A DNA stretch of 64,000 bases, from positions 1-64,000 of the forward strand of contig QPMI01000645.1 of NCBI GenBank assembly GCA_004431415.1, given 5' to 3'. Positions 21,526-45,200 of this stretch are shown here, one piece after another. Position numbers and translations under genes: made by a program. The DNA is from Cyanophora paradoxa CCMP329 (lineage: Eukaryota; Plantae; Glaucophyta). The notes beneath the pieces are model-generated. The model saw only the letters and a list, made by a program, of their open reading frames with translations. It did no database searches and was not told the DNA's origin. Position 1 is the first letter of the stretch. Each line of letters opens with the position of its first letter.

Positions 21526-22371
21526 TGTATTGCAGTGAGCATATACTGCCATTATTCCAAGTCCCTGTAGACCTGTACCCCCAGTCTGTACTTGTACCCC
21601 AATGATACCAGTCCCCAGCTAAACTATGCTGGCAACATCCCTCGCCGGACGCCACGCGCACTCCGTGCCGGACAGCTAGCCTAGCTGCTCTGGCCGGGTC
21701 GGTGGTAGCCGTGTGGTCTACGTGGAGATCGCAGCGCAACGGGCAACTCGCCCATCCTGCCGGCTAGTGACTACGAGGGGGATTGGATCGTCAGCTTGCA
21801 ACTCAACGGCAGCTCCGGAGCTGGCCGATTCGCTCGCGCGGTCGGTCCGGCGGACAAGGAGCAGCATCGGCCCGGACGTCGCGCTCGCGCAACCGTCCCG
21901 TCGACGCAGCTGCTGGCAAGCACACCGGACACCGTTCGCACACGGTGGGAGCCCGCGCTTCGCGCCGCTTAGGGTTCGCCCCGAAGCGACCGCGGTTCCG
22001 CAAGCTCCAGGCCTAGCGATCAACTGGCTCGCTGCGAGGGTTCGTCCCGAAGCAGTCGCCGGATAGCGCAACGAGAAGCCGCGTGCTCGGGCTCGCCCAA
22101 AGCACGCCAGCATCTCGGGCCTGCCGACCATCGCCAAGAGCCAAGGTTGAATCTCGCCGCGGCAAGTGCCTAGCGCACACCGGGAGCTTACCGGACACGC
22201 TTTTACATACAGTATACGGACACCGGCGGCGCGTGCGTCATCACGGACAAGAACGGAGTAACGGTCGATAACGGCAACATCGACCACACCCCGCCACGAC
22301 GCCCGCCTCAGCGCCGCGCACGTCTCGACCCCTCGAAGGGGGAGACTCTGTCAAAATTTTCGGCACAGACA
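21526..22371 (+). repeat. Putative 5' LTR (TGT...ACA, ~846 bp)
   Basis: Ends ...CAGACA 3 nt before the PBS. Start TGTATTG chosen where the upstream coding-like sequence breaks off. No second LTR in the window to confirm. Confidence 0.45.
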
Positions 22372-22374
22372 CTC

Positions 22375-22385
22375 TGGCGACTCCA
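22375..22385 (+). promoter_or_regulatory. Primer-binding site, complementary to a tRNA-Arg 3' end
   Basis: TGGCGACTCCA directly after ...ACA-CTC and ~250 bp before the gag ATG; matches my recollection of the complement of plant-type tRNA-Arg(ACG) ...TGGAGTCGCCA. Confidence 0.65.
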
Positions 22386-22638
22386 GTCAACGGCCGACCG
22401 TCGCGACTCCTCGGAGGAACCGACCTCGACCACGACCGCCACGACGCCCGCTTCAGCGCCGCGCATACCACGGGCGCTTGAAGGGGGAGACTCTGCCGAA
22501 ATTTACAGCGATTCCAGGCCCCTAGCACGCCAACGATCGACGACTGCGGCTGCGGACTGACACGCGGGACACGCGACTTACACCCTCACTGACACTACCA
22601 CTCCTCCTTTCCTACCTTTACGTCTACACGACTTCATC

Positions 22639-24669
22639 ATGTCCCGACACACGCGGCCCGCCCTGGCCCGCGTCTCCGACTTCTCGGCGATTGCGGCGGT
22701 CGCGGCGTCGCAGGAGATGCCCCAGCACCAGAAGTACGCTCGCCAGATCCAGCCGAAGGAGGAGCCGGTGCTGTTGAAGATCAACGAAGGCAACGTTTAC
22801 ACGTTCGGCTACCCGATGACGCACGCGAACGTCAAGCGGACGCTGGATCAGCTCGACAGCATCGTCAACCGTAAACCTTTCTTCGCGGGCAACCCGACCA
22901 CGCCAGACGAACGCGTCCGCGGCTCACTGATGCTCCGGGAGCTGGCGCAACTGTTTTCTCCAGAGGAGACGGACTTGTACCGCACCCGCCTGACCCAACA
23001 GGCGGACTTTGACAAGTACATCGCGCAAGCGGAGGCGAAACGGGCGGCACAGGAGGCGGTGGTGGAGGCCTTCAAGGCCGACCCCGGGAAGTCTCAGGAG
23101 CAGAAGGACCACGCGCAGGCGCAGCTCAACGCTCTCGAGGCGACGGTCCTCCAGGCGCGGGACATGATCCCGACGACAACTATCCGCTCGTACGAGGACT
23201 TCTGCACGTACGCACGCTCGCGCATCGACGAACGTGACAAACGGAACCTGGCGACGTGGGCGGACACGATGTACTACGGGATCCCGCCGCGGCTCCAGTT
23301 CGACTTGACGGTGGAGGCGCTCCAAGTCTCAGGCGTATCGATGACGCCAACGCTCATCGTACAGAAGCTGGAGACTCAGATTAACCTCCGGGCACGTGAG
23401 CACGACGACACTTGGGAGGTTTACCGGGACGATGCCGACCGCCGGCGTTCCAACTTCGACCTGTTGGTCGACAAGGTGATGCCCCAGCTGCGGGAACTCC
23501 AGCGGACGACCGAGAACGCCTTTCCGAACGACCCGGGCCTCGCGACGACGTCCTTCATCCAGCGGGCTCAAGATTGGTTGGAAAAGCCGGAGATCAGGCG
23601 CAAGTCGAAACAGGTCACCCTACTCGCAGGCGACACCCCGGCGAGCGTGGAGACAGGGGGCCCGGCGCGTGCCGTCCGCATGACACATGCCGAGGAGACG
23701 GAGGACGTCTTCGACAACCGCCGACAGGATCGCGAACTGACCGGCCTTGACACGACGCCGTACAAACGCCCCCGACACGAGACTGCTGGTTCACCGACGG
23801 GCACGCGAGAGTGGATGCCGAGCCCGACGGAGGGGTTGGCGGCACGGTTCGACAACAGCGCTAACATCGACATGCTGCGGGTGACGGAGTCGCTCCGAGC
23901 CCAGGTTCAGGAGCAGCATCAGCAGACGCAGGCTCAGCTTAACCAGCTACAGACCGCGATGGCCTCGCACATGCAGTCAGCGGCGCAGATGGCGCAGGCG
24001 GCGAACATCGCGGCGGTGCAGGCGACGCAGTTGTCGGCAGCGCAGCTGGCTGGCTCAGCCTTCCAGGCGGCGCCGTACAACCCGAACCGTCACGTCCCGC
24101 CGCCACGGCCATCACAGCCCCACGGCTTCTTCCAGCACGCTTCGCACTCGCCGGGTCAGAAGCCGAGCCCCCACGTACCGTGCACACTCGTACTTTCGCC
24201 CGACGGACGCGTCTGCGGCGTCATTCACTCCGTCCGGGCCAACAAGTACAAGCAGCTCATCGCATTCATTGACGTGGCCGACCCGAACCGCACGGAGCCG
24301 GTGACGAAGCAGCTGGGTCGGCCGCTGGTGCCGGAGTGCATGCTGGATTACTGCAGGCGTTGCGAGGCGATCTTCGGCACGGAGAACAGCAAGCACTGGC
24401 ATGACGACGTCGCAGTCTGCGCGATCCTGAGGGCCCTGCGCGCATTGGCGCCCCATCCCAGCCACCCCCAACTCCCCGTCGGCTGGTACCAGGCACTGCT
24501 GGACCGCGGCATCCTCCGGCCTTCACGGAAACCTCAGTTTGCGCCGTTCAACCAGCAGCTCGCCCTCCCGGCACCCCAGCCACAGCTCGCCCTTCCGGCG
24601 CCACCGCCCCAGCTGGCGCTCCCCGCTCCGCCGATGCAGCAACCGCCGCAGGCGACGCAGCAGCAGCGG
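22639..24669 (+). CDS. gag: ORF1 part 1: Gag N-terminal/capsid region (677 aa), interrupted at a codon boundary by insertion 1
   Basis: Long helical ORF just after the PBS, with a Cys/His cluster and QLALPAP x3. Joins in frame (CAG CGG|TGG CAG) to 36230, which leads to a CCHC knuckle. Confidence 0.8.
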
Positions 24670-24985
24670 TCGGGATTTGCGCTCTCAATGCGTAAATCGA
24701 GTTTTGCGCCGACGGAATGCGAACAAAGAAGACCGTAGCCGAGCGCCAGGCACGAAAGAGCTGAGCGACTCGCTAGCCGCGGAAGCGGCGCGAGGCGAGC
24801 ACGGGATTAGCAGCAGGCTGCTGCGAGCGCCCCTCAAGGGACTAGCTGAGCTAGCCGTTGGGCCGAGCCAGCGGGCTTGAAGCCGCCGAGCTCCGGGGGT
24901 ACGCTGATTCGGGGTTTCCCTTCACGCCCAGCTTCGCTCGCGGCCGCCCCAGGCCACGAAGCGACCAGCGGCGAAGCGAAATCGC
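24670..24985 (+). repeat. Split direct repeat A1 (~316 bp)
   Basis: Near-identical to 34710-35026 and to the reverse complements 52149-52465 and 61499-61815. Confidence 0.92.
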
Positions 24986-25614
24986 CACAGCCAGCACTGC
25001 AGTCACTCCTAAGCAGCCCTGTCGGACCGGCGGCCGCACTTCTCGGCCGTCCCTCCAATTGCACAGAGCTGACCAACTCTGCAGCACCACGGCTCGCCAT
25101 AGCTGCAGTGGAGCGCGATCCCGCGGCAGCAACTGCGCATGCCTCGATGGCTGGCCGGCGCAAACCCTGTTCCCAGCGATCCTCCCGGAATCGGCCTCGG
25201 GCCCCGATTCACGCTTGAATCTGGTTCCTTACTGCCGTGCCGGTACGTGGATTCACGTCCGGGCCCGCCCGCCACGCTCGCATTCCGCGCGCGCTGGCTA
25301 TCCCGGGGCCCACCGTCAGTCCGCGGCCGCCGGCTTGCCTATACACTCTATATAAGCGTGTATTGAGACCCGCCGCGCGATTCCTCCGGTTCCTGACCAA
25401 TTCCTGCACGCATGCTCCGGAGCTCCTCGGCGCTCGCACCGGACGTCGACACCGCCGCTGTGCCACGCCGGCGGAGCTCGCGCAGGACTGCCCCGGCCTG
25501 CTGGCGCGCGCGCTGCAGACCCACCGCGAAGTCGGGGCTTGGATCGTGCCTTACGCGTGATCCACCGACGGACGGTGCCCAGCCGCTCGCGCGGCTCGGG
25601 GAGGCGACGGAGTA

Positions 25615-26940
25615 CTAGTACGGCTCTCGCGTGCGCCTCGCGCTGTGGGACGGCCCGCGTGCGCCTCGCGCTGTGGTCCCTGTACTCGGAGTTCGGAGGC
25701 CGCGCGCGACTCTCGCTGTGGCCCGATCCCCCCGGCGGATTCCGGCCGCGACCGCGGCCGGCGAACTTCCACCAGGAGCACGGATCTCGCGAGCGCCTCG
25801 CTGTGAGATGGGCCCGCGTGCGTTCGTCGCTGTGGGCCCCCGTGCAAGGAGTTCCGGGGCCGCGTGCGCCCCGCTGTGGCCCCAGACCGCTTCAGCGGCA
25901 CCGGCCGCTCCCGCGGCCGGCGAACTCCCAACCTGGCCTTCGAATTCGACTCCCGCGTGCGCCTCGCGCTGCGGGACGGCCCGCGTGCGCCTCGCGCTGT
26001 GGGCCCCCTACTCGGAGTTCGGAGGCCGCGCGCGACTCTCGCTGCGGCCCGCTCCGCCCCCGGCGGACCCGGCCGCGCCCGCGGCCGGCGAACTTCGACC
26101 AGGAGCACGGGTCTCGCGAGCGCCTCGCTGTGAGATGGGCCCGCGAGCGTTCGTCGCCGTGGGCCCCCGTGCGCGGAGCTCCGGGCCGGGGCCGCGTGCG
26201 TCTCGCTGTGGCCCCAGAGCTTCACCCCGGAGTACGGCTCTCGCGTGCGCCTCGATCGCTGCGGGACAGCCCGCGAGCGTGCGCGCTGTGGGCCCTGTAC
26301 ATATATATATATATACTCGGAGTTCGGAGGCCGCGCGCGACTCTCGCTGTGGCCCGATCCGCCCCGGCGGATCCCGGCCGCACCCGCGGCCGGCGAGCTT
26401 CCACCAGGAGCACGGATCTCGCGAGCGCCTCGCTGTGAGATGGGCCCGCGAGCGTTCGTCGCTGTGGACCCCCGTGCGCGGAGCTCCGGGGCCGCGTGCG
26501 TCTCGCTGTGGCCCCAGATCTAGAGCTTCACCCCGGAGTACGGCTCTCGCGTGCGCCTCGCCCGCTGCGAGACGGCCCGCGAGCGTGCGCGCTGTGGGCC
26601 CTGTACTCGGGTTCGGAGGCCGCGCGCGACTCTCGCTAGCGCTGTGGCCCGATCCGCCCCGGCGGATTCCGGCCGCACCCGCGGCCGGCGAACTTCCACC
26701 AGGAGCACGGATCTCGCGAGCGCCTCGCTGTGAGATGGGCCCGCGAGCGTTCGTCGCTGTGGACCCCCGTGCGCGGAGTTCCGGGGCCGCGTGCGTCGCG
26801 CTGTGGCCCCAGAGCTTCACGCCGGAGTACGGACCTCGCGTGCGCCCCGCTGCGAGACGGCCCGCGAGCGTGCGCGCTGCGGGCCCCGGACTCGGAGTGC
26901 GTTACGCTGCGGACTATAGCTACGGCTCTCGCTGGCACGC
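25615..26940 (+). repeat. About 4 tandem ~300-bp repeats built from CTCGCGCTGTGG-like subrepeats
   Basis: CCAGGAGCACGG(A/G)TCTCGCGAGCGCCTCGCTGTGAGATGGGCCCGCG recurs at ~25772, 26099, 26404, 26699. Confidence 0.85.
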
Positions 26941-27529
26941 GCGCTGCGAGTATTAGTCGGCCCTCTGGCGCGTCTCGAGCTCGCTGCGGACTAGCCGCTA
27001 GCGCTAGCGCTGCTGGCGCGACCGCTACAGCCTCGCGATCGATCGCGATCGCAGAGTGTTTTGTTTGTTTTTGGTCAATTCTAGTCGATTCAAGGATTGA
27101 CTCGACCTTAAAACAAAAACAAAAACAAAAAACAAAAACAACGGACGTACCCGTTGTACCGGCCGGACTCCGGACTCCGGAGCCGCCGGACCCGCGGTCC
27201 CGCGCCGCGCGGTCTCACTGCCGCAGTGCCAGGCCGCTGACTCAGTGAGGCGGGCACTTCCGGGGGATCCGCTGCCGCAGTGCCGCCGCTGCGGCGCCGC
27301 ACGGCATGCGCAGTCTGCAGTGGCAGTACAGCCGCAGTGCCGCAGTGCGAGCTCGAGTCGGCCGGCGCCCGCAGCTGCAGCTGCCAGGCTGGCGCTTCCG
27401 CTACCGCAGTGCTGCCGCTGCCCCAGTGGCGCGTTACGCTGCGGACTACGGTCCCCGCTTGCGCTCTAGATTTCGCTGCGAGTCGGCCTGCTGGCGACCT
27501 TCCGCGCATCCGCGCCGCACCCTTGCGCA

Positions 27530-30500
27530 ACCCGGGCCCCCGCACCGCAGCTCGGCTCGCCGCCGCCGCCGGACCTGCCTGCGCAGGGCGGGCCGGCCGC
27601 TGGCCCGCCTGCGGCACTCCCCGGCTGGAGCCCAGGGCTCCACCTCCGTCCCGAGGTCCGAAAACGACCTCGCGCGGCCCCGCACCGCCGCGCCACCCGC
27701 CGCCGCCGCCTGACCTGCTTGCGCAGGGCGGGCCGGCCGCTGGCTCGCACGCAGCGCTCCCCGGCTGGAGCCCAGGGCTCCGCCTCCGCCCCGAGGTCCG
27801 TCACGACCTTGCGCGGCCCCCGCGCCGCCGCTCGACCCGCCGCCGCCGCCTGACCTGCTTACGCAGGGCGGGCCGGCCGCTGGCTCGCCTGCCGCGCTCT
27901 CCGGCTGGAGCCTTGGTCTCCACCTCCGCCCCGAGGTCCGTCACGGCCTCGCGCGGCCCCGTGCCGCCGCTCGACCCGCCACCGTGGCACCGCCGCCTGA
28001 CCTGCTTGCACAGGGCGGGCCGACCGCTGGCTCGCACGCAGCGCTCCCCGGCTGGAGCCCAGGGCTCCGCCTCCGCCCCGAGGTCCGTCACGACCTTGCG
28101 CGGCCCCCGCACCGCCGCGCCACCCGCCGCCGCCGCCTGACCTGCTTGCGCAGGGCGGGCCGACCGCTGGCTCGCCTGCGGCGCTCTCCGGCTGGAGCCC
28201 AGGGCTCCGCCTCCGCCCCGAGGTCCGTCACGGCCTCGCGCGGCCCCCGCACCGCCGCTCGACCCGCCGCCGCAGCCTGATCTGCTTGCGCAGGGCGGGC
28301 CGGCCGCTGGCTCGCCTGCCGCGCTCTCCGGCTGGAGCCCTTGGGCTCAACCTCCGCCCCGAGGCCCGTCACGGCCTCGCGCGGCCCCCGCACCGCCGCT
28401 CAACCCGCCACCGTGGCACCGCCGCCTGTCCTGCTTGCGCAGGGCGGGCCGACCGCTGGCTCGCCTGCGGCGCTCCCCGGCTGGAGCCCCGGGCCCCGCC
28501 CCGCCCCGAGGTCCGAAAACGACCTTGCGCGGCCCCACGCCCGCGCTCGACCGCCGCCGCCGCATAACCTGCTTGCGTAGGGCGGGCCGGCCGCTGGCTC
28601 GCCTACCGCGCTCTCCGGCGGGAGCCCAGGGCTCCACCTCCGCCCCGAGGTCCGTCACGGCCTCGCACGGCCCCGCGCCGCCGCTCGACCCGCCGCCGCC
28701 GCCTGACCTGCTTGCGCAGGGCGGGCCGGCCGCTGGCCCGCCTGCGGCGCTCTCCGGCTGGAGCCTTGGGCTTCACCTCCGCCCCGAGGTCCGTCACGGC
28801 CTCGCGCGGCCCCGCACCGCCGCTCGACTCGCCGCCGCCGCCGGACCTGCTTACGCAGGGCGGGCCGGCCGCTGGCTCGCATGCGGCGCTCTCGGGCTGG
28901 AGCCCTTGGGGCCCCACCTCCGCCCCGAGGTCCGTCACAGCCTCGCGCGGCCCCGCGCCGCCGCGCGACCTGCCGCCGCCGCCTGACCTGCTTGCGCAGG
29001 GCGGGCCGACCGCTGGCTCGCCTGCGACATTCGCCGGTTGGAGCCCTTGGGCCCCACCTCCACCCCGAGGTCTGAAGCGGCCTCGCGCGACCCCCGCGCC
29101 GCCGCTCGACACACCGCTGCCGCCTGACCTGCTTGCGCAGGGCAGGCCGGCCGCTGGCTCGCCTGCCGCGCTCTCCGGCTGGAGCCCAGGGCTCCACCTC
29201 CGCCCCGAGGTCCGTCACGGCCTCGCGCGGCCCCGCGCTGCCGCTCGACCCGCCGCCGCCGCATAACCTGCTTGCGCAGGGCGGGCCGACCGCTGGCTCG
29301 CATGCAGCCCTCCCCGGCCGGAGCCTTGGTCTCCACCGCCGCCCCGAGGTCCGTCACGGCCTAGCGCGGCCCCGCGCCGCCGCTCGACCCTCCGCCGCCG
29401 CATAACCTGCTTGCGCAGGGCGGGCCGACCGCTGGCTCGCCTGCGGCGCTCCCCGGCTGGAGCCCAGGGCTCCGCCTCCGCCCCGAGGTACGTCACGGCT
29501 TCGCGAGGCCCCGCGCTGCCGCTCGACACGCCGCCGCCGCCTGACCTGCTTGCGCAGGGCGGGCCGGCCGCTGGCTCGCACGCAGCACTCTCCGGCTGGA
29601 GCCCAGGGCTCCACCTCCGCCCCGAGGTCCGTCACGGCCTCGCGCGGCCCCGCGCTGCTGCTCGACCCGCCGCCACCGCATAACCTGCTTGCGCAGGGCG
29701 GGCCGACCGCCGTCTCGCCTGCGGTACTCTCCGGCTGGGGCCCAGGGCCCCGCCCCCGCCCCGAGGTCCGTCACGGCCTTGCGCGGCCCCCGTGCCGCCG
29801 CTCGACCCGCCGCCGCCGCCTGACCTGCTTGCGCAGGGCGGGCCGGCCGCTGGCTCGCACGCCGCGCTCTTCAGCTGGAGCCCAGGGCTCCACCGCTACC
29901 CCGAGGTCCGTCACGGCCTAGCGCGGCCCCGCGCTGCAGCTCGGCGTACCGCCACTGCCTGACCTGCCTGCACAGGGCGGGCCGGCCGCTGGCTCGCCTG
30001 CCGCGCTCTCCGGTTGGGGCCCAGAGCTCCACTTCCGCCCCGAGGTCCATCACGGCCTCGCGCAGCCCCGCGCTGCCGCTCGACCCGCCGCCGCCGCATC
30101 ACCTGCTGGCGCAGGGCGGGCTGGCCGCTGGCTCGCACGCAGCGCTCCCCGGCTGAGCCCAGGGCTCCACCTCCGCCCCGAGGTCCGTCTCGGCCCCGCG
30201 CGGCTTCGGGCTGCCGCTCGACCCACCGCCGCCGCATAACCTGCTGGCGCGGGGCTGGCCGGCCGCTGGCTCGCATGCAGCGCTCCCCGGCTGGAACCCA
30301 AGGCCCCACCTCCGCCCCGAGGTCCGTCACGGCCTCGCGCAGCCCCGCGCGGCCGCTCGACCCGCCGCCGCCGCGTAACCTGCTTGCGCAGGGCGGGCCG
30401 GCCGCTGGCTCGCACACAGCGCTCCCCGGCTGGAGCCCAGGGCTCCACCTCCGCCCCGAGGTCCATCACGGCCTCGTGCTGCCCCGCACTGCCGCTCGAC

Positions 30501-33500
30501 CAGCCGCCGCCGCAAAACCTGCTTGCGCAGGGCGGGCCGTCCGCTGGCTCGCATACAGCGCTCCCCGGCTGGAGCCCAGGGCCCCACTTCCGCCCCGAGG
30601 TCCGTCACGGCCTCGCGCGGCCCCGCGCTGCTGCTCGACATGCCACTGCCGCCTGACCTGCTTGCGCAGGGCGGGCCGGCCGCTGGCTCGCACGCAGCGC
30701 CCCCCGGCTGGAGCCCGGGGCTCTACCTCCGTCCCGAGGTCCGTCACGGCCTCGCGCGGCCCCGCGCTGCTACTCGACCCGCCGCCGCCACATAACCTGC
30801 CTGCGCAGGGCCGGCCGCTGGTGCGCATGCAGCGCTCCCGGCTGGAGCCCAGGGCTCCACCACCGCCCGAGGTCCGCCACGGCCTCGCGCTCCCCTGTGC
30901 TGCCGCTCGACACGCCGCCGCCGCATAACCTGCCCGCGCAGGGCGGGCCGGCCGCTGGCTCGTCCGCAGCGCCCCCCGGCTGGAGCTCAAGGCGCCACCG
31001 CCGCCCCGAGGTCCGTCACGGCCTCGCCCGACCCCGCGCTGCCGCTCGACCCGCCGCCGCCGCATACCCTGCTTGCGCAGGGCGGGCCGGCCGCTGGCTC
31101 GTATGCAGCGCTTCCCGGCTGGAGCCCAGGGCTCCACCTCCGCCCCGAGGTCCATCACGGCCTCGCGCAGCCCCGCGCTGCTGCTCGACCCGCCGCCGCC
31201 GCATAACCCGCTTGCGCAGGGCGGGCCGGCCGCTGGCTCGCATGCAGCGCTCCCCAACTGGAGTCCAGGGCTCCACCTCCGCCCAGAGGTCCGTCACGGC
31301 CTCGCGCGGCCCCGCGCTGCCGCTCGACCGCCGCCGCCGCATAACCTGCTTGCGCAGGGCGGGCCGGCCGCTGGCTCGCATGCAGCCCTCCCCGGCCGGA
31401 GCCTTGGTCTCCACCGCCGCCCCGAGGTCCGTCACGGCCTAGCGCGGCCCCGCGCTGCAGCTCGGCGTACCGCCACTGCCTGACCTGCCTGCACAGGGCG
31501 GGCCGGCCGCTGGCTCGCATACAGCGCTCCCCGGCTGGAGCCCAGGGCCCCACCTCCGCCCCGAGGTCCGTCACGGCCTCGCGCGGCCCCGTGCTGCCGC
31601 TCGACCCACCGCCGCCGCCTGGCCTGCTTGCGCAGGGCGGGCCGGCCGCTGGCTCGCCTGCCGCGCTCCCCGGCTGGAGCCCTTGGGCTCCACCTCCGCC
31701 CCGAGGTCCGTTCACGGCCTCATGCGGCCCTGCACCACCACTCGACCGCCGCCGCCGCATAACCTGCTTGCGCAGGACGGGACGGCCGCTGGCTCGCATA
31801 CAGCGCTCCCCGGCTGGAGCCCAGGGCTCCACCTCCGCCCGAGGTCCGAAAACGACCTCGCGCGGCCCCGCACCGCCGCGCCACCCGCCGCCGCCGCCTG
31901 ACCTGCTTGCGCAGGGCGGGCCGACCGCTGGCTCGCCTGCGGCGCTCTCCGGCTGGAGCCCAGGGCCCCGCCCCCGCCCCGAGGTCCGTCACGGCCTTGC
32001 GCGGCCCCGCGCCGCCGCTCGACCCGCCGCCGCCGCCTGACCTGCTTGCGCAGGGCGGGCCGGCCGCTGGCTCGCATGCCGCGCTCTCCAGCTGGAGCCC
32101 AGGGCTCCACCGCTACCCCGAGGTCCGTCACGGCCTCGCGCGGCCCGCGCTGCAGCTCGGCGTACCGCCACTGCCTGACCCGCTGGCGCAGGGCGGGCCG
32201 GCCGCTGGCTCGTCCGCCGCGCTCTCCGGCTGGAGCCCAAGGCTCCACCGCCGCCCGAAGTCCTTGACGGCCTCGCACGGCCCCACTCCACCACCCGGCT
32301 TGCCGCCGCCGCCTGCCCTACGGGTGCAGGGCGGGCCGGCCGCTGGCCGCCCACCGCGCTCCTGCTGGAGCTCAAGGCTCCACCACCTCCCCGAGGTCTG
32401 CAGCGACCTCGCGCGGCCCGGCGCCGCCGCCCAGCTCGCTGCCTCCGCCTGATTGGCTGGCACAGGGCGGGCCGGCCCTAGCCCGCCCGCGGCCGTCGGA
32501 CGCTTCCTGGCTGGAGCTCAAGGCTCCGCCACCGCCCCAAGGGCGGGCCGGCTGGTGGACCGCGCGCAGCGCCTCCTGCGGTAGCTAAAAGCTCCGCCGC
32601 CGCCCGAAGGTCCGTAGCGGCCTTGCGCGGCCCCGCGCGGCCGCTCGACCGCTACCGCCGTCGGACCTACTCGCGAAGGGGCAGGCCGGTCGCTGGCTCG
32701 CCAGCAGCGCTCTCCTGCTGGAGCTCAAGCCTCCACCACCGCCCGAGGTCTGCAGCGACCTCGCACGGCCCGCACTGCCGCTCGGCTCGCCGCCGCCGCC
32801 TCGCCTGCTTGCGCAGGGCGGGCCGGCCTCTGGCTCGCCCGCGTCGCCCCCTGCTGGAGCTCAAGGCTCCTTCGCGGCCCCGCGGTCCGTCACGGCCTCG
32901 CGCGGCCCCGCGCCGCCGCTCGACCCGCCGCCTCCGCCCGACCTGCTGGCGCAGGGCGGGCCGGCCCCTGGCTCGCCCGCAAGGCCCCCTGGCTGAAGCT
33001 CCAGGCCCCGCCACTACACCGAGGGCTACTGCGACCTCGCGTGGCCCCGCGCCGCCGCTCGGCTCGCCGCCGCCGCCTGACCTGCTTGCGCAGGGCGGGC
33101 CCGGCCAGCCGCTGGCTCGCCCGCAGCGCCTCATACTGGAACTCAAAGCTCCGCCGCCGCCCAAGGTCCGTGGCGACCTCGCGCGGCCCCATGCCACAGC
33201 TCGGCTCGCCACCACCGCCTGACCTGCGTACGCAAGGCGGGCCGGCCTCTAGCTCGCCCGCGACGCTTCCTGGCTGGAGCTCAAGGCTCCACCCCGCCCC
33301 GAGGTCTGCAGCGACCTCGCGCGGCCCCGCGCCGCCGCTCGACCCGCCGCCGCCGCATAACCTGCTTGCGCAGGGCGGGCCGGCCTCTGGCTCGCCAGCC
33401 GCGCTCTCCTGCTGGAGCTCATGGCCCCATCACCGCCCCGGGGTCCGTCACGGCCTCGCGCGGCCCCGCGCTGCCGCCGCTTCGCCTGCTGGCGCAGGGT

Positions 33501-33730
33501 GGGCTGACCGCTGGCTCGCCCACGGTGCTGTCCCACGGGCGCTCCAGGCCCTGAGGCCCCGCGACTGCTCCCGCGGCCTTCTGCGGCCCCCACACCTCCA
33601 CGCGGCGCGCTTCCGCCGCCTAACCTGCTTGCACAGGGCAGGACGGTGGTGGGCTCACTTTCGGTGCTCACCGGCTGGGATGGTTTTAGATTCCGCCGCG
33701 GCCCGAGGTCCGTAACGGCCTCGCGCGACT
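27530..33730 (+). repeat. 139-bp GC-rich tandem satellite, roughly 44 diverged units
   Basis: Unit CCTGCTTGCGCAGGGCGGGCCGGCCGCTGGCTCGC...GGCTGGAGCCCAGGGCTCCACCTCCGCCCCGAGGTCCGTCACGGCCTCGCGCGGCCCC; repeat-derived ORF starts recur at multiples of 139 bp (29133, 29411, 29550). Confidence 0.93.
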
Positions 33731-34155
33731 TCACGCCGACGCGCAGTGCGACCGCCTTGCCCGCCCTCCACCCGTAGCGCGCCCCTGGCCCGCACCGCCC
33801 AGCATGACTTGTCGGCGGCGGGGATCTGGCGGCGCAACTATCAAGCGCCGCCCCGGTTCGTCGACTGTCCCATAGGGTACGACGAGAACCCCCCAGCCTT
33901 CTGTGCCGGCTCGTTCCCTCGGGCTTCTTGGCCCGCCCCGGCCCCATGTTGTTGTCCGAATTCACGCTCTCTGCCCGTCCCTCCTACAGCGCAGTGCGCT
34001 GGGGGATAGGGGCTCAGCGTCCGAGACACGTTGGGGTAGCGGGGGAGGAGGAAAGAGAGGGGGGGGGGCAGGAGGAGGGTGGATCAACCCTCACCCTCTT
34101 GATCACTTTTGTCCTTATGTATGCTATTCTGGCTGGCTGTGACCTGACTCTTGTT

Positions 34156-34709
34156 TGGTAGGGGGTACTGCATTCGTGCTGCGTTCGCTACGCTCACCCC
34201 CGCGGCCTCCGGCGGCGGTACCCGGCTTCGGATCCCGAACCCGGAAGAAACCGCGTACCCCTCCCCGGGGTACGCCGTTCGCCCCAACCGGCCCCACAAG
34301 GCGCGGCCCGAGCCGAACGCGTACCCCGGAGAGGGGTACGGCGTCAGAGCGGCCCCGATCAAGTGTACCCCGAGCGGGGTACCCCGATCGGCCCCGCGAC
34401 GGCCCGAGCGGAGTACCCCGAGCGGGGTACACCGTCTCGACCCGCAACGGCCCTCCCCGGGGTACAGGCGCCTAGCACGCTTACCCCGGAGAGTTCTTGT
34501 TCCGGAACTCGCAAGGGCGAGGCCGGAATGGCATACGGCGATCCGCCCTGGTCGATCGCCAACGTATTATGATACGTGGTTCCCGGGAAAGCAGCCTTGA
34601 GCTGCCGTACCTCAGGGCCCAACCCGATGCGCTATCCCGTGCATCTAGCTAAGTAGTGTCAGGCGTAAGATAGCTAGGTCTTCTGCATTCGAATGAAGCG
34701 AGGCGTAAA
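34156..34709 (+). repeat. Split direct repeat B1 (~555 bp)
   Basis: Near-identical to 35673-36229 and to the reverse complements 50945-51502 and 52466-53023. Confidence 0.92.
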
Positions 34710-35026
34710 TCGGGATTTGCGCTCTCAATGCGTAAATCGAGTTTTGCGCCGACGGAATGCGAACAAAGAAGACCGTAGCCGAGCGCCAGGCACGAAAGAG
34801 CTGAGCGACTCGCTAGCCGCGGAAGCGGCGCGAGGCGAGCACGGGATTAGCAGCAGGCTGCTGCGAGCGCCCCTCAAGGGACTAGCTGAGCTAGCCGTTG
34901 GGCCGAGCCAGCGGGCTTGAAGCCGCCGAGCTCCGGGGGGTACGCTGATTCGGGGTTTCCCTTCACGCCCAGCTTCGCTCGCGGCCGCCCCAGGCCACGA
35001 AGCGACCAGCGGCGAAGCGAAATCGC
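34710..35026 (+). repeat. Split direct repeat A2, abutting B1 (internal copy of the end-to-start junction)
   Basis: ...GAGGCGTAAA|TCGGGATTTGC... is the element 3' terminus fused directly to its 5' terminus. Confidence 0.92.
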
Positions 35027-35672
35027 TCCCGCCACCTCCCGCGATTTTTCCTTCCGGGGCGCCGAACCTCGCCACCCAGCGAGCCCCGGCGCCGCGAAAA
35101 GTTCGCGCAAAAAGGCAATGCATACGGCGACCAGCGCCAGCGTTCGCCGAGGGTATTATAATACGTGGTTCCTTGCCGTCTCCTGTGCACACGGTTCCGG
35201 ATGTTACTCCCGCTCGGTGCCGGCCACCAGCGCGGACGTGGTCGTGCACAGCTGATCCGTGGTAATTTACAATGGTTCCGTCGAAGATTCGGGCACGAAC
35301 CGCGCAGACTCGGTGTACCGGTCGTCATTCGTGTTTCCACGCGCGTCCGCTGGGCCCACTTGTGCCGGGCCGGGGTCCAGCGCGCCCCCAAGAAACAGTC
35401 GCGCGGCTTCGTGGAGAATCTCGAGTTTTCCCCGCTGGGTTTTACCCTGTTTTCCTCTGGACCCGTGGGTGCCGAGCCGGGGTCCAGCGCGCATGACCGT
35501 TACGCGGTTTTCCCGCGGTAACTTGCTGGTTTTCGAGTCTGCCGCCCCGGCGCGGGGGGAGACTTCGCGCATGATTCGGAGTCCTGTTGGTTTTTGATGA
35601 GCCTCGGTTGTCGTACGTTGTACGACTCCTTGGTCTCATGGTCGTCTGCGGACGACGGGCACGCTACGCGTG

Positions 35673-36229
35673 TGGTAGGGGGTACTGCATTCGTGCTGCG
35701 TTCGCTACGCTCACCCCCGCGGCCTCCGGCGGCGGTACCCGGCTTCGGATCCCCGAACCCGGAAGAAACCGCGTACCCCTCCCCGGGGTACGCCGTTCGC
35801 CCCAACCGGCCCCACAAGGCGCGGCCCGAGGCCGAACGCGTACCCCGGAGAGGGGTACGGCGTCAGAGCGGCCCCGATCAAGTGTACCCCGAGCGGGGTA
35901 CCCCGATCGGCCCCGCGACGGCCCCGAGCGGAGTACCCCGAGCGGGGTACACCGTCTCGACCCGCAACGGCCCTCCCCGGGGTACAGGCGCCTAGCACGC
36001 TTACCCCGGAGAGTTCTTGTTCCGGAACTCGCAAGGGCGAGGCCGGAATGGCATACGGCGATCCGCCCTGGTCGATCGCCAACGTATTATGATACGTGGT
36101 TCCCGGGAAAGCAGCCTTGAGCTGCCGTACCTCAGGGCCCAACCCGATGCGCTATCCCGTGCATCTAGCTAAGTAGTGTCAGGCGTAAGATAGCTAGGTC
36201 TTCTGCATTCGAATGAAGCGAGGCGTAAA
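35673..36229 (+). repeat. Split direct repeat B2 (3' terminus of copy 1)
   Basis: Direct repeat of B1, ending GGCGTAAA. Confidence 0.92.
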
Positions 36230-39200
36230 TGGCAGCAGCACGCAGGCGGCGCGAACCGGAACACCGGGCGGCCGGGGGGCGGCGGAGGCCGGCGGGACGA
36301 CCCGCGAGGCCCACTCGTCTGTTACAACTGCGGCAAGGAGGGTCATGTGGCTGCGCGCTGCCCCGACCCTCCGCGGGAGCGGCGTGGAGGAGGCGACTAC
36401 CGCGCGGTGCAGCCCCCGGCGCAGGCGAATTACGCGGCGACGGGCGCGAACGCGACTCCGACGGCACCGGCCCAGCCGCCGATCTCGCAGGAGCAGGTCA
36501 ACTCGATGCTACAGGTGGTCCAGGCGGCACTCCTGAACAAGGCGGGCACCAACGCGGTCGCCGCCAACACTCCGGAGGCCGAGGCCCTCTGTAGGGAGGT
36601 CATCCGACAGTACCTCCAACGCATGGCCGAGGAGAAGCTTACGGGATCAGAACGCCGGCGGAGGAGGCGAGCAGCACGCGAAGCGGTGGACGCGACGGCT
36701 GCGGGTGCGGAGCAGCTGGAACTGCGGACGGCCAGTTGGGAAGACGACGGACGGATGGAGAGGCAGTCGGACGGCACGCCGTCATCCAACTGGGCTACAC
36801 CGGCGGGCTCGTCGGGATCAGCATCGCCCATGTCGACGGGCACACCGCGCGGACGGGAGCCGATGGTAACGGACGGCGCTGCGGCCGGGCTCGCCCAAAC
36901 CGCACAGCCGGACGGGACCTGTGACGACGCGACGGACCCACTGCACGGACCTGAGACGGCAACAGTGAACGGCGCTGCAGTCGGGCTCGCCCAAACTGCA
37001 CAGCCGGACACGACGCCCGTCAACACGGCGGCGACGGAGACGGGACCGACCGACCCCGCGTCAGAGCTCGCTCGAAACGCGCAGTCAGAGTCGGCCCCAC
37101 TCTCTACGTTCTTCACTTCCGTGCTGGAACGGGCCCGACGAAGCTTCGCGGCCCTGCACATCCGCCTCCAAGGCGAGGCAGTCATGCCGGAGGAGGAGCG
37201 CACCGCTGCTCGGCAGGAGCGGGAAGAGGACGACCCGGGGTCGGGGTCGGAGGACGCGGAGAACGACAGCCTCGACGGCGGGCCACTGCGCCTCCGAGGA
37301 GGAGGAGGCAGCAATACGCCAACCCCGGACGGAGGCGACGACGCCTTCAACTCGGAGGCAGTCCAAGACGTTATCGACCCGATGCCGCCGCTCACCGCAC
37401 TGCCGGCACCCGTGCCGCTAGGCCCGGGCCAGATCGAGCTCTTGGGCGTGGCGGTCGACCCGGCGGAGATGGCCGCGGCGGAAGAGCAGGACGACCCGCC
37501 TCCGCTCTGGCGCTCCGACGACGAGGCGAGAGGCGACCCGGACTCCGACGACGACCTCTATCCACCGACGGGGACGTACCCGAACGGCTACGACAGCGAT
37601 TGCAGCTCGACCGCATACTACCCGACTACGATGCTTGACATCGAACTCGCCGACGCACGAGCAGCAGCGGCTCGGCGGGGCGTCACAGTGGAGCAGCACC
37701 TGGCGGAGCAGCTTGCGGAGGCTGAGGCGGCACTTGACCGCCCCCAGAGCCCCAGCGACGTCTGGGCGGGCGTGGCCGCGAGGATGTCGCCGGGCAGCGA
37801 GCGCGCCCCGGGCAGCATCAGTACGTACGTCGACGAGTGGCTCCTGGGGATCGCAATGACAACGGAGGCGAACCCGGCGGCGGACACAGCTACACCGGCG
37901 ACACCCGCGGCTGCGACGGTCCTCCGGGCACGGGCCCGCCTGCTGGCAGGACGAGCGATCGCCGACAGAGCCGCACGCCACCGCACGGACGCTCGCGACA
38001 CCCAACGCGAGCTGCAGGGCGACGCGACGGCGCGCGACGACGTTGCGGATCAAGTACACGACGGCCTCATGCAACCAGCCGTGCTCCGCCTGATTGCTCA
38101 GGAGGCCGCGAGGAGGGTGATTGGGGCGCGGGCGGTCGATCGCGGGACCACGTACCAGGCCGCCCAGCAGACGATCAGAGGCGACGTCACGGCGGAACGC
38201 GAGCTGACAGAGGCTGTCCTGGCGGACCTGCGGCAGTGGCGTCAGACAGGCGCAGCGGCGGAAGCGACGGCAGCGGTCACGGAGGCCTGCAACACCCCCA
38301 TGTTGTACACGGTCTACGACACCACGTCTGGCTTCCTCAACCCGCCCCAGCAGACGCCTACGCTCATCGCCCCTCCCGCGCGCCTTCTTCACCCGGGAGT
38401 CATGCCCTTTGGTTCGAGCTCGGGGACGAGCACAGGGCTGTACGACCGAACGGTGGAGGACGTGCTCGCGATGCAATTAGCGGGGCTGCTGGATGCTGAC
38501 GGACAACCCACGGCAACTGCCGACGCTGACCGTGACCAGACGCGGGAGACGGACGCGGCCGAAGTGCCGTATACACCGACGTTCGCAGAGGGGAGGACAC
38601 GCGTCGAGATCATCGCGAACCTGCTGCGAGCGGTCGAGAACAGACTGGAGACCATGCCGCCCCCGCCGCCTCTCCCGCACATGCCCCCGATTCACTACGT
38701 CGACGACGAGGCGATTATCCAGGGTCAGGCTGAGACCATCGTGGACGCCATCATTGCTACGCTCCGACACCGCGTGGATGACCCGCGCACGGAGCTCCGG
38801 CGACGCTTGGGGGATGAGCTCTCGAGGTGGACGGGGGGGCCGTATATCGTTTACCACAATCGGGGGCAGATTGCACGGCTCCATGCAGCTTTCCTACGGG
38901 CACTCGATCGCATCGCCATCATGCAGCAGTGCCGCCCACCACCACCGCCGCGCCCGCGGCACGAATCCGACGACGACGAGGATGACCTCAACGGCTTCGG
39001 ACCCTCCGACGCGGCTACCAAGTCGAACGCGGGACGGACGGCACAAACCACAGCAACGACTGCGAGCGGCTCGGGGAGACGCCGGCCGTCCCCGCTGGAG
39101 GAGGTGGACCCGCTGGAGACTCTCCTGGAAGTCTTCTACCAAGCCAAGCTAGCAGTGCACGCAACTACGGATGCGCCAGACACCGCGGGCACAGTACTGC

Positions 39201-42200
39201 GTCTTCGCGGAGGAGCGGGCAAGCGGACCCGGTCGACCGCAGGCATCAGCTCAGGCGAGGACGACCCGCCACGGCAGCGCCCAAACCGCCCACCGACGCC
39301 AGCCGTGACGGACCCCGCGCTCGGGCTCGCCCAAAGCGCGCAGGCCGTGATGACGACGGCGTCAGCAGAGGCCGCAGAGTTGCAGCGCGTGGAGAAGTTG
39401 GCACCCGCTGGCGAGCAGTGCCTGATGACGGCGGAGGCCGCGGAGACGCAGCGCGCGGAGGGCGCGGAAACGCCACCTGCAACGGACCCCACGTTCGGGC
39501 TCGCCCAAAGCGTGCAGGCCGTGACGGCGGCGTCAGCAACGGAGGAGGACGCGAAGGCGTTGGCACCCGCTGGCGAGCGGTGCCCGACGGCGGCAGAGGC
39601 CGCGGAGACGCAGCGCGCGGAGGGCGCGGAAACGCCACCTGCAACGGACCCCACGTTCGGGCTCGCCCAAAGCGTGCAGGCCGTGACGGCGGCGTCAGCA
39701 ACGGAGGAGGACGCGAAGGCGTTGGCACCCGCTGGCGAGCGGTGCCCGACGGCGGCAGAGGCCGCGGAGACGCAGCGCGCGGAGGGCGCGGAAACGCCGC
39801 CTGCAACGGACCCCACGCTCGGGCTCGCCCAAAGCGTGCAGGCCGTGACGGCGGCGTCAGCAATGGAGGAGGACGCGAAGGCGTTGGCACCCGCTGGCGA
39901 GCGGTGCCCGACGGCGGCAGAGGCCGCGGAGACGCAGCGCGCGGAGGGCGCGGAAACGCCACCTGCAACGGACCCCACGTTCGGGCTCGCCCAAAGCGTG
40001 CAGGCCGTGACGGCGGCGTCAGCAACGGAGGAGGACGCGAAGGCGTTTCAGTTGGCACCCGCTGGCGAGCGGTGCCCGACGGCGGCAGAGGCCGCGGAGA
40101 CGCAGCGCGCGGAGGGCGCGGAAACGCCGCCTGCAACGGACCCCACGCTCGGGCTCGCCCAAAGCGTGCAGGCCGTGACGGCGGCGTCAGCAATGGAGGA
40201 GGACGCGAAGGCGTTGGCACCCGCTGGCGAGCGGTGCCCGACGGCGGCAGAGGCCGCGGAGACGCAGCGCGCGGAGGGCGCGGAAACGCCACCTGCAACG
40301 GACCCCACGTTCGGGCTCGCCCAAAGCGTGCAGGCCGTGACGGCGGCGTCAGCAACGGAGGAGGACGCGAAGGCGTTGGCACCCGTTGGCGAGCGGTGCC
40401 CGACGGCGGCAGAGGCCGCAGAGACGCAGCGCGCGGAGGGCGCAGAAACGCCACCTGCAACGGACCCCACGCTCGGGCTCGCCCAAAGCGTGCAGGCCGT
40501 GACGACGGAGGCGACGGCAGCGGAGCCAGGCGGCGACGTCGTAACAACACCACCACCGGACGCCCCACAAGAGCACACGTACTCTCCGAACTCGCCTTCC
40601 CATCCGGATCACCCCATGAACATCACGAGGATGGAGATCGACTCGCCGTCAGAGCACACGCATGACGAGGCGGAGCACACGTGGGAGGCGAATTATCGAC
40701 GACGGCTGAAGACGGGCCAGACGATTAACAACGACACTCGATACCGTGCACTCGCAGAGTACACGATGGACAAGTACGGAGTCCCGCGGTCGTCAAACGT
40801 GAGACGCCAGGTGGCGGACGGATTGATGCGCAATATGGACCCCCCACCCCGAACGGCACCAGCCCACCAGGCCCTACACCCGGGCAACGCGGAACTGATT
40901 GCGGAACTCACACGGGCGGACGCGGGCGAACTGCTCAACGCCCATGCAGGCCCGATCGACGAGCGGTGGCTTGGGCTGTGGGGGAGGTTGACATCAGACG
41001 GACGTTGGCGACTCCTCCAGTGGACGGCAATGGAACGCAACGTCGACACGGCTACGCTGGCCGCGCAAGAACACCGAGAACGAGCGGCGAAGTTCGCCGA
41101 GATCCAGGCGGCGGGCGGGGGCCGGCGGATGCAGGAAGTCGAGCGGGGCGAGGAGCCACGCGCGTGGGAGACAACCGTGGCGGCGGACGTCGCGCGGGCT
41201 TACGCGGTCCACCGGGGCATCGACAAGGAGATGTCTACCGCCGGGATCGGCGACGGCAACGTGGAAGAAGCCCTGAGGTCGCTGAGCTCTCGTGAGGCCG
41301 GCTACTACAGGGTCGTCAGTCGGGCGGTCTTCACGATGCTCGGAACCAACACGGTCTGGAACCCGCAGTGGATCACGGGAGGACGCCCGGGGGGCCCCCC
41401 GCCGACCCACTTACCACGATCCATGAGACCAAAGGAGCGGTCGATGATGGACTACGAGTTCACGAACCCATCGCAAGAGGAGGGCGTTCGCGAGCGGCAG
41501 ATCTGGCAACACCTGGCGCCGCTGATGGAGGCCGTCAAGCCGTGGGTTGGACTCACGGATACAGCCCGCTTCGGAGCACTCGCTGCGGAGGCTGACAAGC
41601 GACGTGTCTCGGTGGAACAGCTGCCGGACATACTGATCGAGGAGTGGGGACAGCTCTGCGACCTCGCGCGGCAAGCAGGCTACTTGCGGTGGGAGCGCGT
41701 TGCAACGGGCGCGGATAACCCCAGGCACCAGCACGTCGCGGTGGCCGACATTTTCGTCCAGACACTCGACCTTCTCGGCCGCCTGGACCACGAGCGGGAC
41801 CGGTACCACCCGGGCCAACCCTGGTTCAAGGTGTTCCGAGCGCTGGCGGCCGAAGAAGCGGGTTATGGGAAGGGGAGGCGGGCGCGAGAGCTGTACGAGC
41901 AACTCGCAACCCTACGGGACTCCGTCACAGGACGTGCTGAGACGGAGACGCTACTGAAGATGTACCGCGGGGAAAACGGCTGGGACGGCTGGCAGTACCG
42001 GCTGCCGCACGCAACGGCGTCGGTAGAATTCTCAACGGTCTACACGTCGCGCGACCTGAACAAGACGCGAACGGGGGAGAGGCCGTACATCGACAGGGAC
42101 CTGACCGAGCCATTCCGGATGGATACCGAACTCCCCAGGCGTGACTTCAGCATCTGGATGGCGCGCCAATCGCGTTATGTACGTGACGGGAAGAGCCTTC

Positions 42201-45200
42201 CCTCGCCACCGCTGAGCCGACACTGGGGAGAGGGCGCGTACGGCACAGACAAGGAGAGTCTCGTGGTCACGACGCAAGTGGAAGTGCAGGCAGCACTACT
42301 ACACGCCAAGCTTCCACAGTTCAGGCGGGCAATGGCAGCACTGATCATGACGGGGTTCTCGGGCTTCGTCGACCCCTTTGTCGAAGCGCCGGAGCGGCGT
42401 TGCAGCGGGGAGATCAGCGACGCGGCATGGCGCGACTCGGCCAGGCAGGGCCTTTCGTGCCTCGGACACGATAGCCTTCTCGCACTGTTCGGCGTCGAGA
42501 TGCGCGAGATCGGACACTTCACCAACGCAGTCGACAGCATCATGCCCACGCTCGTCGCGTTGGGTATCGAGCTTGGCAGACGGCTGAATGGCGAGCGTCA
42601 GCGACGCGGGCGAGGCGCCCCCATCCAGTTCGACACGGGGCTTCTCGAAAAGGCGCTAACGTCCCAAGCAATGGATGAGGCAGTCGAGGAAGCTACCCGT
42701 TACGTCATGCTAGCGGCAGCCACGATGGAGACGCCGCCAGCACTGGAGGAGTGCCCCGACGCCGAGGTCGCTTTGCGACTCCGTACGCACGCGATAACGT
42801 GCGGACTGTCACTCTTCCTCGCGGCGCGGGACCCGAGGGCGGAAGGAGGTCTCCAGTGCCCTCGCACACTGTGGGACTCGAAGGGCAGCGAGGTCGAGTG
42901 GGTGGACGTGCTCAACACGAACCGAGCGTTCGACTACGACCTCCCGGACGGGTTCCTGGTGACGTTCCTCGTGGAGATCTGCGAGAGCTTCTTGACGGTG
43001 GCGCGGTATGCACGCACAATCGACGGGCGTACACCGACGATCGCTTCGGTGGCTGCAGCGGAGGACAACGAGAGTAGGGCCCTCTTCACGCGCACCAGGC
43101 CTAGCTTGCGCACGGGCCGCACAAACGTGAACCTCGAGGCACTCTCCTGGAGCACTGCCTTCCGTACGGCACTCGGCTTCACGGGCAAAGCGCACCTGTT
43201 CTGCGACCTCATGGAGGAGTTGCTCTACGTGAATGCGATGGCGGTGGATGTACCGTTCAGATTGGTCGACGGCGACTTACGGGACGGAGCACGACGGGAG
43301 GCGATTGCCACCTACCTGCGCCAACGGCGGGTGATCCCCGTACACTACAGATTCGTGTCTCGCGAGAGCAAGACGCGCGCGATTGTGCACCTCACGTACT
43401 CGGCGGGGCTGGCACGGCTGCGTCGGGATCACAACGTCATCCGTGACAGCATTGCCATGCTCGCCATCGAACTGCACAACGACCGGGAGGAGGGGAACAA
43501 GCCGAACGCAGCGTTCAGTTGGGCTCCGCAGCCGCCCCAGGCCCCCATGCACCTGGCAATTCACGATCCCGATGTCACGTGGTACGCGGCGCCTTTTCAG
43601 TCGACACCGTTCATCCTTGGCCGGCGGGGGGAGAATCTCCGGCTAGTTCCCATCGCAGTGGCGATGACGTCGCTCAGGACCCTCTTGCTCAGAACGGTCA
43701 CGGAGCGGCTGCGCGAGTCCATGACAACGGCGATTGCGACAGCGACGGGCGAGTCGGACCCGCACAGCGCGAAGGCGCAGCAGGCTGTACGAGTACTGAC
43801 TTCCTGGATCATGGAGATGGCGGCGTCGCCCTTCAAGGCGTACACGGTCGCAATGATTGTGGGCCACCCAATGCAATTCTTCACTCTCCTGCGCACGCTC
43901 CATCGCGAGCAGCTGCAGCACGGCAACGAGGGACTGCAGCGTTACCCGCTGACTCCGAACCGGCAACTCCCCGTCGTCATGCAAGGGCGGCGGCAGGACT
44001 GGGAACGGAACATCCCGCTACACCACTTGCCCGTACGCTCGGCAAAACCCGGCGCCTGGCCGTACTACGCGGGCGCCAACGCTTTCGGTCTCCCAACGGT
44101 GATGGAGGGGGAGATGAACGAGACGGAACGCCGAGTTATCGTGCACTTTGCGCTACGTCCGGCCCCGAACGTTGCAGGACCAAGCGGCGGCTCTGCGACA
44201 ACGGTGGCGACGCTATCGCCCCCTCAGGACGCTCGGCCTGAGAGCGCGGCAGTCGCCCTCGTGGCGAGCGGCGACCCGGCCCGGATTAACACGAGCCGGC
44301 GACCTGCGAAGCCCCACGAGGTGACGGCCGTCGACATGCTACTCCATGGAGGGCCACTGGCACAGGCCGTCGGCAAGCAACTGCAGCACGGGGACGGCGC
44401 GTTGACGGCAGACGACAGAGCAATCCAGCAGGACCTGTTCGTCCCGACACCTCTCCCACGCCACGACGTCGACACGGATCCCTTGCTCCTTCGGGATCAG
44501 CCGGCGAGCGGCTACTTCCACTACACCACGTGGAGACGCCTGCACGAGCGGGCCGAACCGGTTGACGGTGCCATCGCCGCGGCGTTCGAGTCACAACGGG
44601 CACGGGCACCTCGCATCCAAGGGCGGCTCTTCCAGCAGGCGATGGGCCAGCTGCTCGGACAGCCAACAGGCCCGCGGGCCAGACCGGGGGAGGAGCGCGC
44701 TGGAGCGCCAAGCGCCCGGCCCCTGGCCGAGGCCCCGCAACGCCGGCGGAGGCGCCAGCAGCCACAACCGGAGGACCAGCCCTGGGAGCGTTACGATGCA
44801 CTGGGACGGGTGTGCATCAACGGGGACGAGCTCACGCTCTTCACGGACGTCAAGGCGGGGACAACGGCGCTGCAGAGCCGGTTCGAGTACAGGGCTCCGA
44901 CGCGGACGGCGCTGGCCTGGCAGCATCCGAGTCATCCCACCTCCGCCGAGGAGCTGACGACGGACCACGGATCCGTGTTCGACCCGGCCCGCGACGACGA
45001 CATTCATGCAACGATGGTGTTCGAGGTGCAGTTGCCAACGACAACGGAGCGACACTGGCTCGGGACGGACGACGGGACGGGCCACGACCTTCTTCTCGGG
45101 TTCTCGCATGTCCCCGACCCGCATCGGGAACTGACAGCGGTCGCCCACCTGGCTTCCTGCTTTGCCACGACAGCCTTGCGCGTCCACTTGGCATTCCCCT

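Follow-up and report, generated by a model that had tools for sequence, protein, structure and literature searches.

Among described mobile elements, the closest counterparts of the one analysed here are retrotransposons of the tyrosine-recombinase (YR) group. TOC1 of Chlamydomonas reinhardtii, 5.7 kb in length, displays split repeats, a unique stretch between its second A and second B repeat, internal tandem repeats, solo terminal units and no target-site duplication (TSD). It is a non-autonomous member of this group whose partner, TOC3, is PAT-like, and the PAT, Ngaro and VIPER elements share a layout of the form A1...B1-A2-B2 with identical A and identical B repeats. In a 64,000-nucleotide stretch from the glaucophyte Cyanophora paradoxa CCMP329 (contig QPMI01000645.1, positions 1 to 64,000, forward strand; hereafter the window) we find two copies of a large element with this layout, which probably represents a young, multi-copy, non-coding, TOC1-like split-direct-repeat family mobilized in trans by a YR retrotransposon with the same ends, of the PAT/TOC3, Ngaro or VIPER type. 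We infer both the YR partner and an RNA stage with the same fair confidence.

Comparison of the window with itself reveals a single element in two copies. The first, E1 (24670..36229, + strand, 11,560 bp), lies within the gag region of a Ty3/gypsy host element, and the second, E2 (50945..61815, - strand, 10,871 bp), in the linker between the reverse transcriptase (RT) and RNase H of the same host. On the + strand E1 consists of A1 (24670..24985, 316 bp), a body of 9,170 bp (24986..34155), B1 (34156..34709, 554 bp), A2 (34710..35026, 317 bp), a spacer of 646 bp (35027..35672) and B2 (35673..36229, 557 bp), and the equivalent parts of E2, on the - strand, are A1 61815-61499, B1 53023-52466, A2 52465-52149, spacer 52148-51503 and B2 51502-50945. 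Both copies thus carry A1 at the 5' end and B1-A2-B2 at the 3' end, with A1 equal to A2 and B1 to B2, which is the split-direct-repeat arrangement that an earlier reading of the letters alone (the sequence-only reading) had proposed. Across the copies A1 measures 316-317 bp and B1 554-558 bp; the four A repeats are mutually identical, as are the four B repeats, apart from single-base indels in C/G runs. With the arrays excluded, E1 and E2 differ by 7 substitutions in 4,056 aligned bases, six of them within two homopolymer misalignments, and the copies are therefore very young, in keeping with the recent activity previously claimed. The difference in length stems mainly from a single 686-bp gap in the array of 139-bp units. 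The body of E1 begins with a unique part (24986..25616), followed by a tandem array of composite ~295-bp units with sub-periods of 128 and 160 bp (25617..26901) and by a second array of 139-bp units (27538..33745; 35.4 + 6.8 copies and a degenerate tail); the two arrays occupy 7,493 of its 9,170 bp (82%).

Several further features of these parts may be recorded here. A TATA-like stretch lies at 25340-25360, ~360 bp past A1. B is strongly structured: it holds four GTACCCC-N4/5-GGGGTAC palindromes (34255-34430), and its region 34230-34480, like the corresponding regions of B2 and the E2 copies, folds far better than shuffled sequences on both strands (z -3 to -7). The spacer contains, at 35120-35172, an 80% copy (E 7e-7) of a 54-bp motif of B at 34531-34583; both retain a GGCGA...TCGCC stem with differing loops and a conserved AT-rich palindrome. 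This motif, possibly a cis-signal, has no Rfam match, and folding of the alignment yielded no convincing common structure.

The two insertion sites define the ends of the element. The host element begins with a 5' long terminal repeat (LTR) placed approximately at 21526..22368 (+) from breaks and loose ends of contigs from public sequencing runs, with TGG, as in a primer-binding site, after it at 22375. Its gag-pro frame (22561..24669 plus 36230..49327, +), which encodes a zinc knuckle and an aspartic protease, is split by E1, and its pol frame (48859..50944 plus 61816 onward to 64000, +), encoding RT and RNase H, is split by E2. Exact excision of both copies in silico leaves the gag frame open over 5,068 aa and the pol frame open as well, neither with a stop; shifting the join by ±1 or ±2 bases introduces early stops in both frames, and a shift of ±3 leaves them open. 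An uninterrupted sister protein from C. paradoxa (P0002), 97-99% identical to the host pol, agrees letter for letter with the zero-offset join at the E2 site, and the ±3 ambiguity is therefore closed for E2. The E1 boundary is based on the termini shared by the two copies and on contigs of the public runs X1 and X2 that fork at 24670. In both runs host-element contigs end at this position, the last base on which a filled and an empty site agree, an indication that the E1 site exists in both states. No TSD of 1-20 bp is present at either of the two sites, so that the clean insertion claimed earlier is confirmed at both by the restored frames and, at E2, also by P0002. Classical LTR elements and terminal-repeat retrotransposons in miniature, DDE transposons and Penelope elements were rejected as candidates: there are no TG..CA ends, no terminal inverted repeats and no TSD, and the repeat order is wrong. 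It is very improbable that the arrangement reflects an assembly artefact or a rearrangement other than transposition. Many of the single-base indels in C/G runs do resemble long-read errors, and the host has ~3 close copies, so that the two insertions could stem from different host copies merged in the assembly; against this, the unique parts and junctions are all covered by contigs in each of the three DNA runs, and the ends are precise to the base at two unrelated sites.

The host itself shows some unusual features. In its gag-pro product ~4,100 aa without a Pfam hit separate the zinc knuckle from the protease, the region includes 7.3 copies of a 54-aa repeat (39308-40508), and a part of 2,040 aa gave no usable Atlas match. 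The pol frame begins in a different frame, overlapping the end of gag-pro (48859-49327). The host element is present in ~3 copies, and the same proteome holds many relatives of 56-86% identity.

The element itself appears to encode no protein. None of 35 ORFs (open reading frames) scanned, from 114 stop-to-stop ORFs of at least 90 aa, reached the Pfam cut-off, and the codon score stays at or below 0.07 in 23 element windows as opposed to 0.12-0.35 in 6 windows from the host ORFs. A tblastn comparison of E1 with 121 proteins (relatives of the Gypsy RT) gave no match, and an Rfam search of the entire window (E up to 1) returned a single chance snoRNA match and no ribozymes. The Gag, RT/RNase H and YR set of YR retrotransposons, with the methyltransferase added in PAT, was accordingly not found among the 35 of 114 ORFs scanned. 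The element is therefore not an autonomous member of these families, and its non-coding, non-autonomous nature, as already proposed, is borne out by the Pfam scan and the codon scores.

Contigs of public sequencing runs aligned to 33750-35669 and 19800-25610 show that the window samples a larger family, with contig depth serving as a rough proxy rather than a copy number. Relative to a contig of unique flank (depth 42, 85 and 6 in X1, X2 and X14), rough values are ~5-10 copies for the present body, 25-36 for A of the window type, 11-14 for a second A type, 21-47 for B, 17-19 for the junction of A with the spacer and ~3 for the host element. In X1, X2 and X14 respectively, all A types together stand at 38, 50 and 38, B at 33-36, 36-47 and 21-32, and the A-to-spacer junction at 17, 17 and 19. 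The family is thus multi-copy, as the sequence-only reading had held, and the ratio of A to B to A-to-spacer is roughly 2:2:1 in X1 and X14, from which it follows that the 1.5-kb A2-spacer-B2 unit is not out-multiplying the long unit. That reading had named independent occurrence of the short unit as evidence against itself; by this rough measure the short unit is not in excess, and the condition was also too strict, as free A-spacer-B units occur in accepted YR retrotransposons (SIRE of VIPER and the Ngaro elements of Cafeteria). Contigs of B end at 34709 in all four runs, among those listed, marking a single boundary, and an A contig of X14 starts at 34710 and extends without a break as far as 35009.

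The same contigs point to relatives of the element. Other bodies leave A after 24994 (in all three DNA runs) and after 24998, within the unique 5' part of the E1 body, and rejoin the B side near 34108-34117, which suggests sister families with the same ends; these are candidates for the autonomous partner, each visible as a loose end of 30 letters. At A positions 24834/34874 and 24870/34910 the contigs of all three DNA runs depart from the window sequence, whereas the four A copies in the window carry the same letters, and A1 and A2 have therefore been homogenized within the lineage, as regeneration of the repeats predicts. The second A type, also seen in all three DNA runs, keeps approximately the first 50 and the last 21 bp of A around a different middle (joint 34759-35006). 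Run X15, which we take to be RNA, has three contigs on the element ends, and X17 has none on 19800-25610. One X15 contig, at 34957-35026, consists of 54 unrelated letters followed by a diverged 3' part of A and the start of the body, and possibly represents a transcribed relative.

The point at which B meets A proved to be the most informative part of the element. This junction (34702..34750, +) comprises four 7-bp boxes, alternately GCGTAAA and TTTGCGC, separated by gaps of 6, 7 and 6 bp; A1 itself starts with the 6-bp centre and three of the four boxes. By themselves, the first two boxes make up an inverted core of 7-6-7, and the element boundary, 34709/34710, coincides with the end of the first box, that is, with the edge between arm and centre. 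YRs cleave between a bound arm and a centre of 6-8 bp with the polarity 5'-arm^centre. The boundary shows this polarity on the + strand, which is also the strand that folds better: the predicted fold has -12.5 kcal/mol (z -3.0; 3 of 200 shuffles) on the + strand and -9.0 kcal/mol (z -1.4; 19 of 200 shuffles) on the - strand. In register, the four boxes pair into a stem of 21 bp with 16 Watson-Crick and 2 G.T pairs and three mismatches, all in the 6-bp centre, and its score is equalled at 3 of 41,508 host positions; in the minimum-energy fold the centre is slightly shifted and there are two bulges. The outer stem depends on the B terminus: as partners of the fourth box, 19 of 83,122 host 8-mers would do equally well, the E1 flank fails to restore it and the E2 flank restores it in part. 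The full 21-bp hairpin is hence predicted to form only where B meets A. A sister form of A appears in two rows of loose ends from X1 and X14, one of which recurs in X2. It has G for A at 34715 and C for T at 34737 together with another 6-nt loop, and as these two positions are partners in the hairpin stem they amount to one compensatory pair change. The second A type may be the sister family with this change. The exact junction pattern was found in no metagenome contig; a three-box pattern occurs at six metagenome loci, which have no similarity to the element and were judged chance, and in no viral contig, and a YR motif had no match in viral contigs.

The rough 2:2:1 depth and the recombinase-type character of the junction both speak for the TOC1/PAT/Ngaro/VIPER reading. 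The layout and the lack of a TSD given in the original proposal are confirmed, and its likeness to TOC1 gains some support; the foldable junction of four boxes and a close resemblance to Helitron2 in the reverse orientation had escaped it. With the coding set of YR families not found, the element is a putative relative of them, and its partner, reverse transcription and circles are hypothetical. We propose that a transcript running from within one terminal repeat to within the other would be reverse-transcribed, with the internal B1^A2 junction templating the missing ends, so that A1 equal to A2 and B1 equal to B2 would be regenerated and B2 joined to A1. The + strand of this junction could then adopt the form of a YR core site, two boxes around a mismatched 6-bp centre. 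The partner YR would cut at the arm/centre edge (34709^34710) and exchange one strand with a target for which homology would matter little or not at all; resolution of the exchange junction would be left to replication or repair by the host. If the partner is indeed a YR, we lean towards such a folded single-strand exchange; as an unconditional statement it is tentative, and that split-direct-repeat YR retroelements in general integrate as folded single-stranded DNA at a two-box site of the attC/CTX kind is conceivable but more doubtful still.

The targets bear directly on this choice. Read along the + strand, the insertion points are G^T and C^G, and along the - strand A^C and C^G. Neither target has sequence in common with the junction, and each agrees with its 6-bp centre at just 2 of 6 positions; GC stands at -7/-6 in both left flanks, as in the first box (chance ~0.013, post hoc with n=2). 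In the standing model for DIRS-order elements, a double-stranded circle integrates at a matching target; the cDNA of DIRS-1 is described as single-stranded and mostly linear and the specificity of its YR as untested (PMC7192593). Within the YR-partner reading, a double-stranded circle might instead be integrated classically, with both strand exchanges at the first two boxes and the second pair accessory; this is a minority option that we regard as rather unlikely. It has the standing model behind it, and the first two boxes would suffice as its inverted core. The 6-bp centre, however, has no homology to either target, and a homology-dependent double exchange therefore does not fit, while two homology-free exchanges should also produce ends displaced by 6 bp, a class absent among the listed contigs. 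Further, the compensatory change links the first centre with the second, a connection relevant only in the fold. A single exchange on a folded strand would account at once for the precise ends, for targets without homology and for the covariation.

It is also conceivable that a YR acts on DNA only, as in a Crypton-like or bacterial-type copy-out in which one strand is circularized at B^A and reinserted with no RNA stage. The YR-type junction, the strand asymmetry and the nearby sister copies would fit such a route; copy-out of one strand by a bacterial YR is known (PMC9345347), and the copy number of CryptonF rises in Chlamydomonas (PMC9977147). We consider it distinctly improbable, as it leaves the internal B1-A2 copy and the homogenization of A1 and A2 unexplained, and Cryptons use a homologous target motif.

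Rolling-circle elements offer a different explanation, with internal arrays and local hops among their known properties. Under it the element would be a composite of two Helitron2/Helentron-like units on the - strand, a terminator-bypassed 1.5-kb unit followed by a 10-kb unit, mobilized by an HUH protein (RepHel) in trans. The - strand of the element opens with 5'-T and a repeat of 8 bp; an inverted partner of this repeat, matching it at 7 of 8 positions, stops 33 nt short of the 3' end and directly ahead of a terminal hairpin, an arrangement close to what is described for Helitron2, and the lack of a TSD, the arrays and the nearby sister copy would all fit. We nevertheless hold this unlikely, since the targets are not the AT, TT or TTTT of Helitrons, no 5' hairpin on the - strand involves the asymmetric terminal inverted repeat (ATIR), and both stems have A.C mismatches on the - strand where the + strand has G.T pairs. 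Moreover, E1 and E2 are both full composites with the short unit not in excess, and 316 + 554 bp of identical, homogenized ends exceed what rolling-circle termini need.

A number of observations weigh against our preferred reading of a TOC1-like element mobilized by a YR retrotransposon, or against the folded substrate proposed with it. No RT, RNase H or YR is linked to the element ends in the 64-kb window or the run contigs, where the other bodies appear only as the 30-nt loose ends. RNA of an 11.5-kb repeat with 70-80% GC is a hard template for RT, and the poor match of the targets is unlike the trinucleotide shared in DIRS or the CAYCG target of CryptonF. E1 and E2 lie 14.7 kb apart (p ~0.01-0.04 for 8-17 uniformly placed copies), and two such close sister copies suggest a local hop at the DNA level; their closeness could alternatively reflect a preference for this host element. 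The homogenization of A1 and A2 could be the work of gene conversion. Contig depth, which does not equal copy number, is nearer 3:2.5:1 in X2, and in X1 the A contig begins at 34719 rather than 34710. As to the hairpin, the four boxes are a 27-bp tandem duplication of a near-palindrome and fold by construction, so that the fold alone is no proof of function; the compensatory change is one event, with the presence of both changes on one molecule inferred from the shared loop; and the G.T pairs could equally reflect a hairpin in RNA.

In the literature we found no report of YR or DIRS elements in Cyanophora, nor of a folded or stem-loop junction in DIRS-order elements, although subscription reviews, Repbase and supplements, which lay outside the scope of the search, may hold both. 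The accessible part of the C. paradoxa assembly paper lists only LTR elements, long interspersed nuclear elements and 11.5% unknown repeats (PMC6704402), and that of a study on another alga describes Ngaro and PAT-like families as common there (PMC12477816). The kind of element is already known, and what is new here is the four-box foldable B^A junction. For the integration step of YR retrotransposons this 49-bp junction offers a concrete candidate substrate with a defined cut site, a strand bias and a natural covariation. If our reading is correct, it extends split-repeat elements to glaucophytes, and the element would account for part of the 11.5% unclassified repeats of the species. If the folded single-stranded substrate is also real, this would be the first eukaryotic element to show such a substrate in its sequence; if the fold is incidental, what remains is an unusually large TOC1-like element.

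Elsewhere in the window there is a gene for the TATA-binding protein (7600-8560, -) with short introns, some of them apparently GC-AG by eye, and a leucine-rich-repeat exon with 69-bp tandem units (2226-2777, +). A ~1.16-kb exon block is present in three tandem copies at 12440-15454; the one ORF scanned there had no Pfam match, and by eye the translation of the block looks fibronectin-type-III-like.

Comparison with known systems places the element nearest to TOC1, with the qualification that the likeness is so far one of description, and that the present element is about twice as long. The VIPER/SIRE elements of Trypanosoma cruzi and the Ngaro elements of Cafeteria burkhardae have A1...B1-A2-B2 repeats of 100% identity; they encode Gag, RT/RNase H and YR, whereas the body studied here is 82% tandem array with no coding signal. 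SIRE spans A2, an internal stretch and B2 of VIPER, like our A2-spacer-B2 unit, with a spacer of ~30 bp as against 646 bp here, and the Cafeteria Ngaro elements form solo AB units and insert preferentially into another mobile element, the virophages (PMC8547959). DIRS1-like elements differ in their inverted terminal repeats and internal complementary region, in place of direct repeats, and in a trinucleotide common to junction and target, of which there is none here; likewise, the terminal motif of Cryptons equals their target motif, and no shared motif exists at either of our two sites. Of the Helitron1 features, 5'-TC is present on the + strand, but the end is TAAA rather than CTRR and neither insertion lies between A and T. 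Helitron2 elements have a 5' ATIR at 0-2 bp, a 3' ATIR ~20-30 bp from the end and compensatory changes (PMC3627910). The - strand of our element approximates Helitron2/Helentron ends in its 5'-T, asymmetric short inverted repeats, subterminal hairpin and lack of a TSD, and departs from them in lacking a TT/TTTT target and a 5' ATIR hairpin and in its long split repeats and fixed composite structure. Replitrons, with ~6-bp direct terminal repeats, a Rep gene and a size of 2-4 kb, are unlike an element with split repeats of 316/554 bp, and the accessible text reports none in glaucophytes (PMC10288648). For the junction the nearest parallels are the attC sites of integrons and the attP of CTX phage, which share with it an imperfect palindrome, two paired boxes, an unpaired centre and a variable loop, and which undergo a single strand exchange resolved by replication, as proposed here. 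These systems are bacterial and have no RT stage, and the extrahelical bases of attC are not evident in the in-register fold of our element; the resemblance, to a fold that is so far predicted, is one of geometry rather than of sequence.

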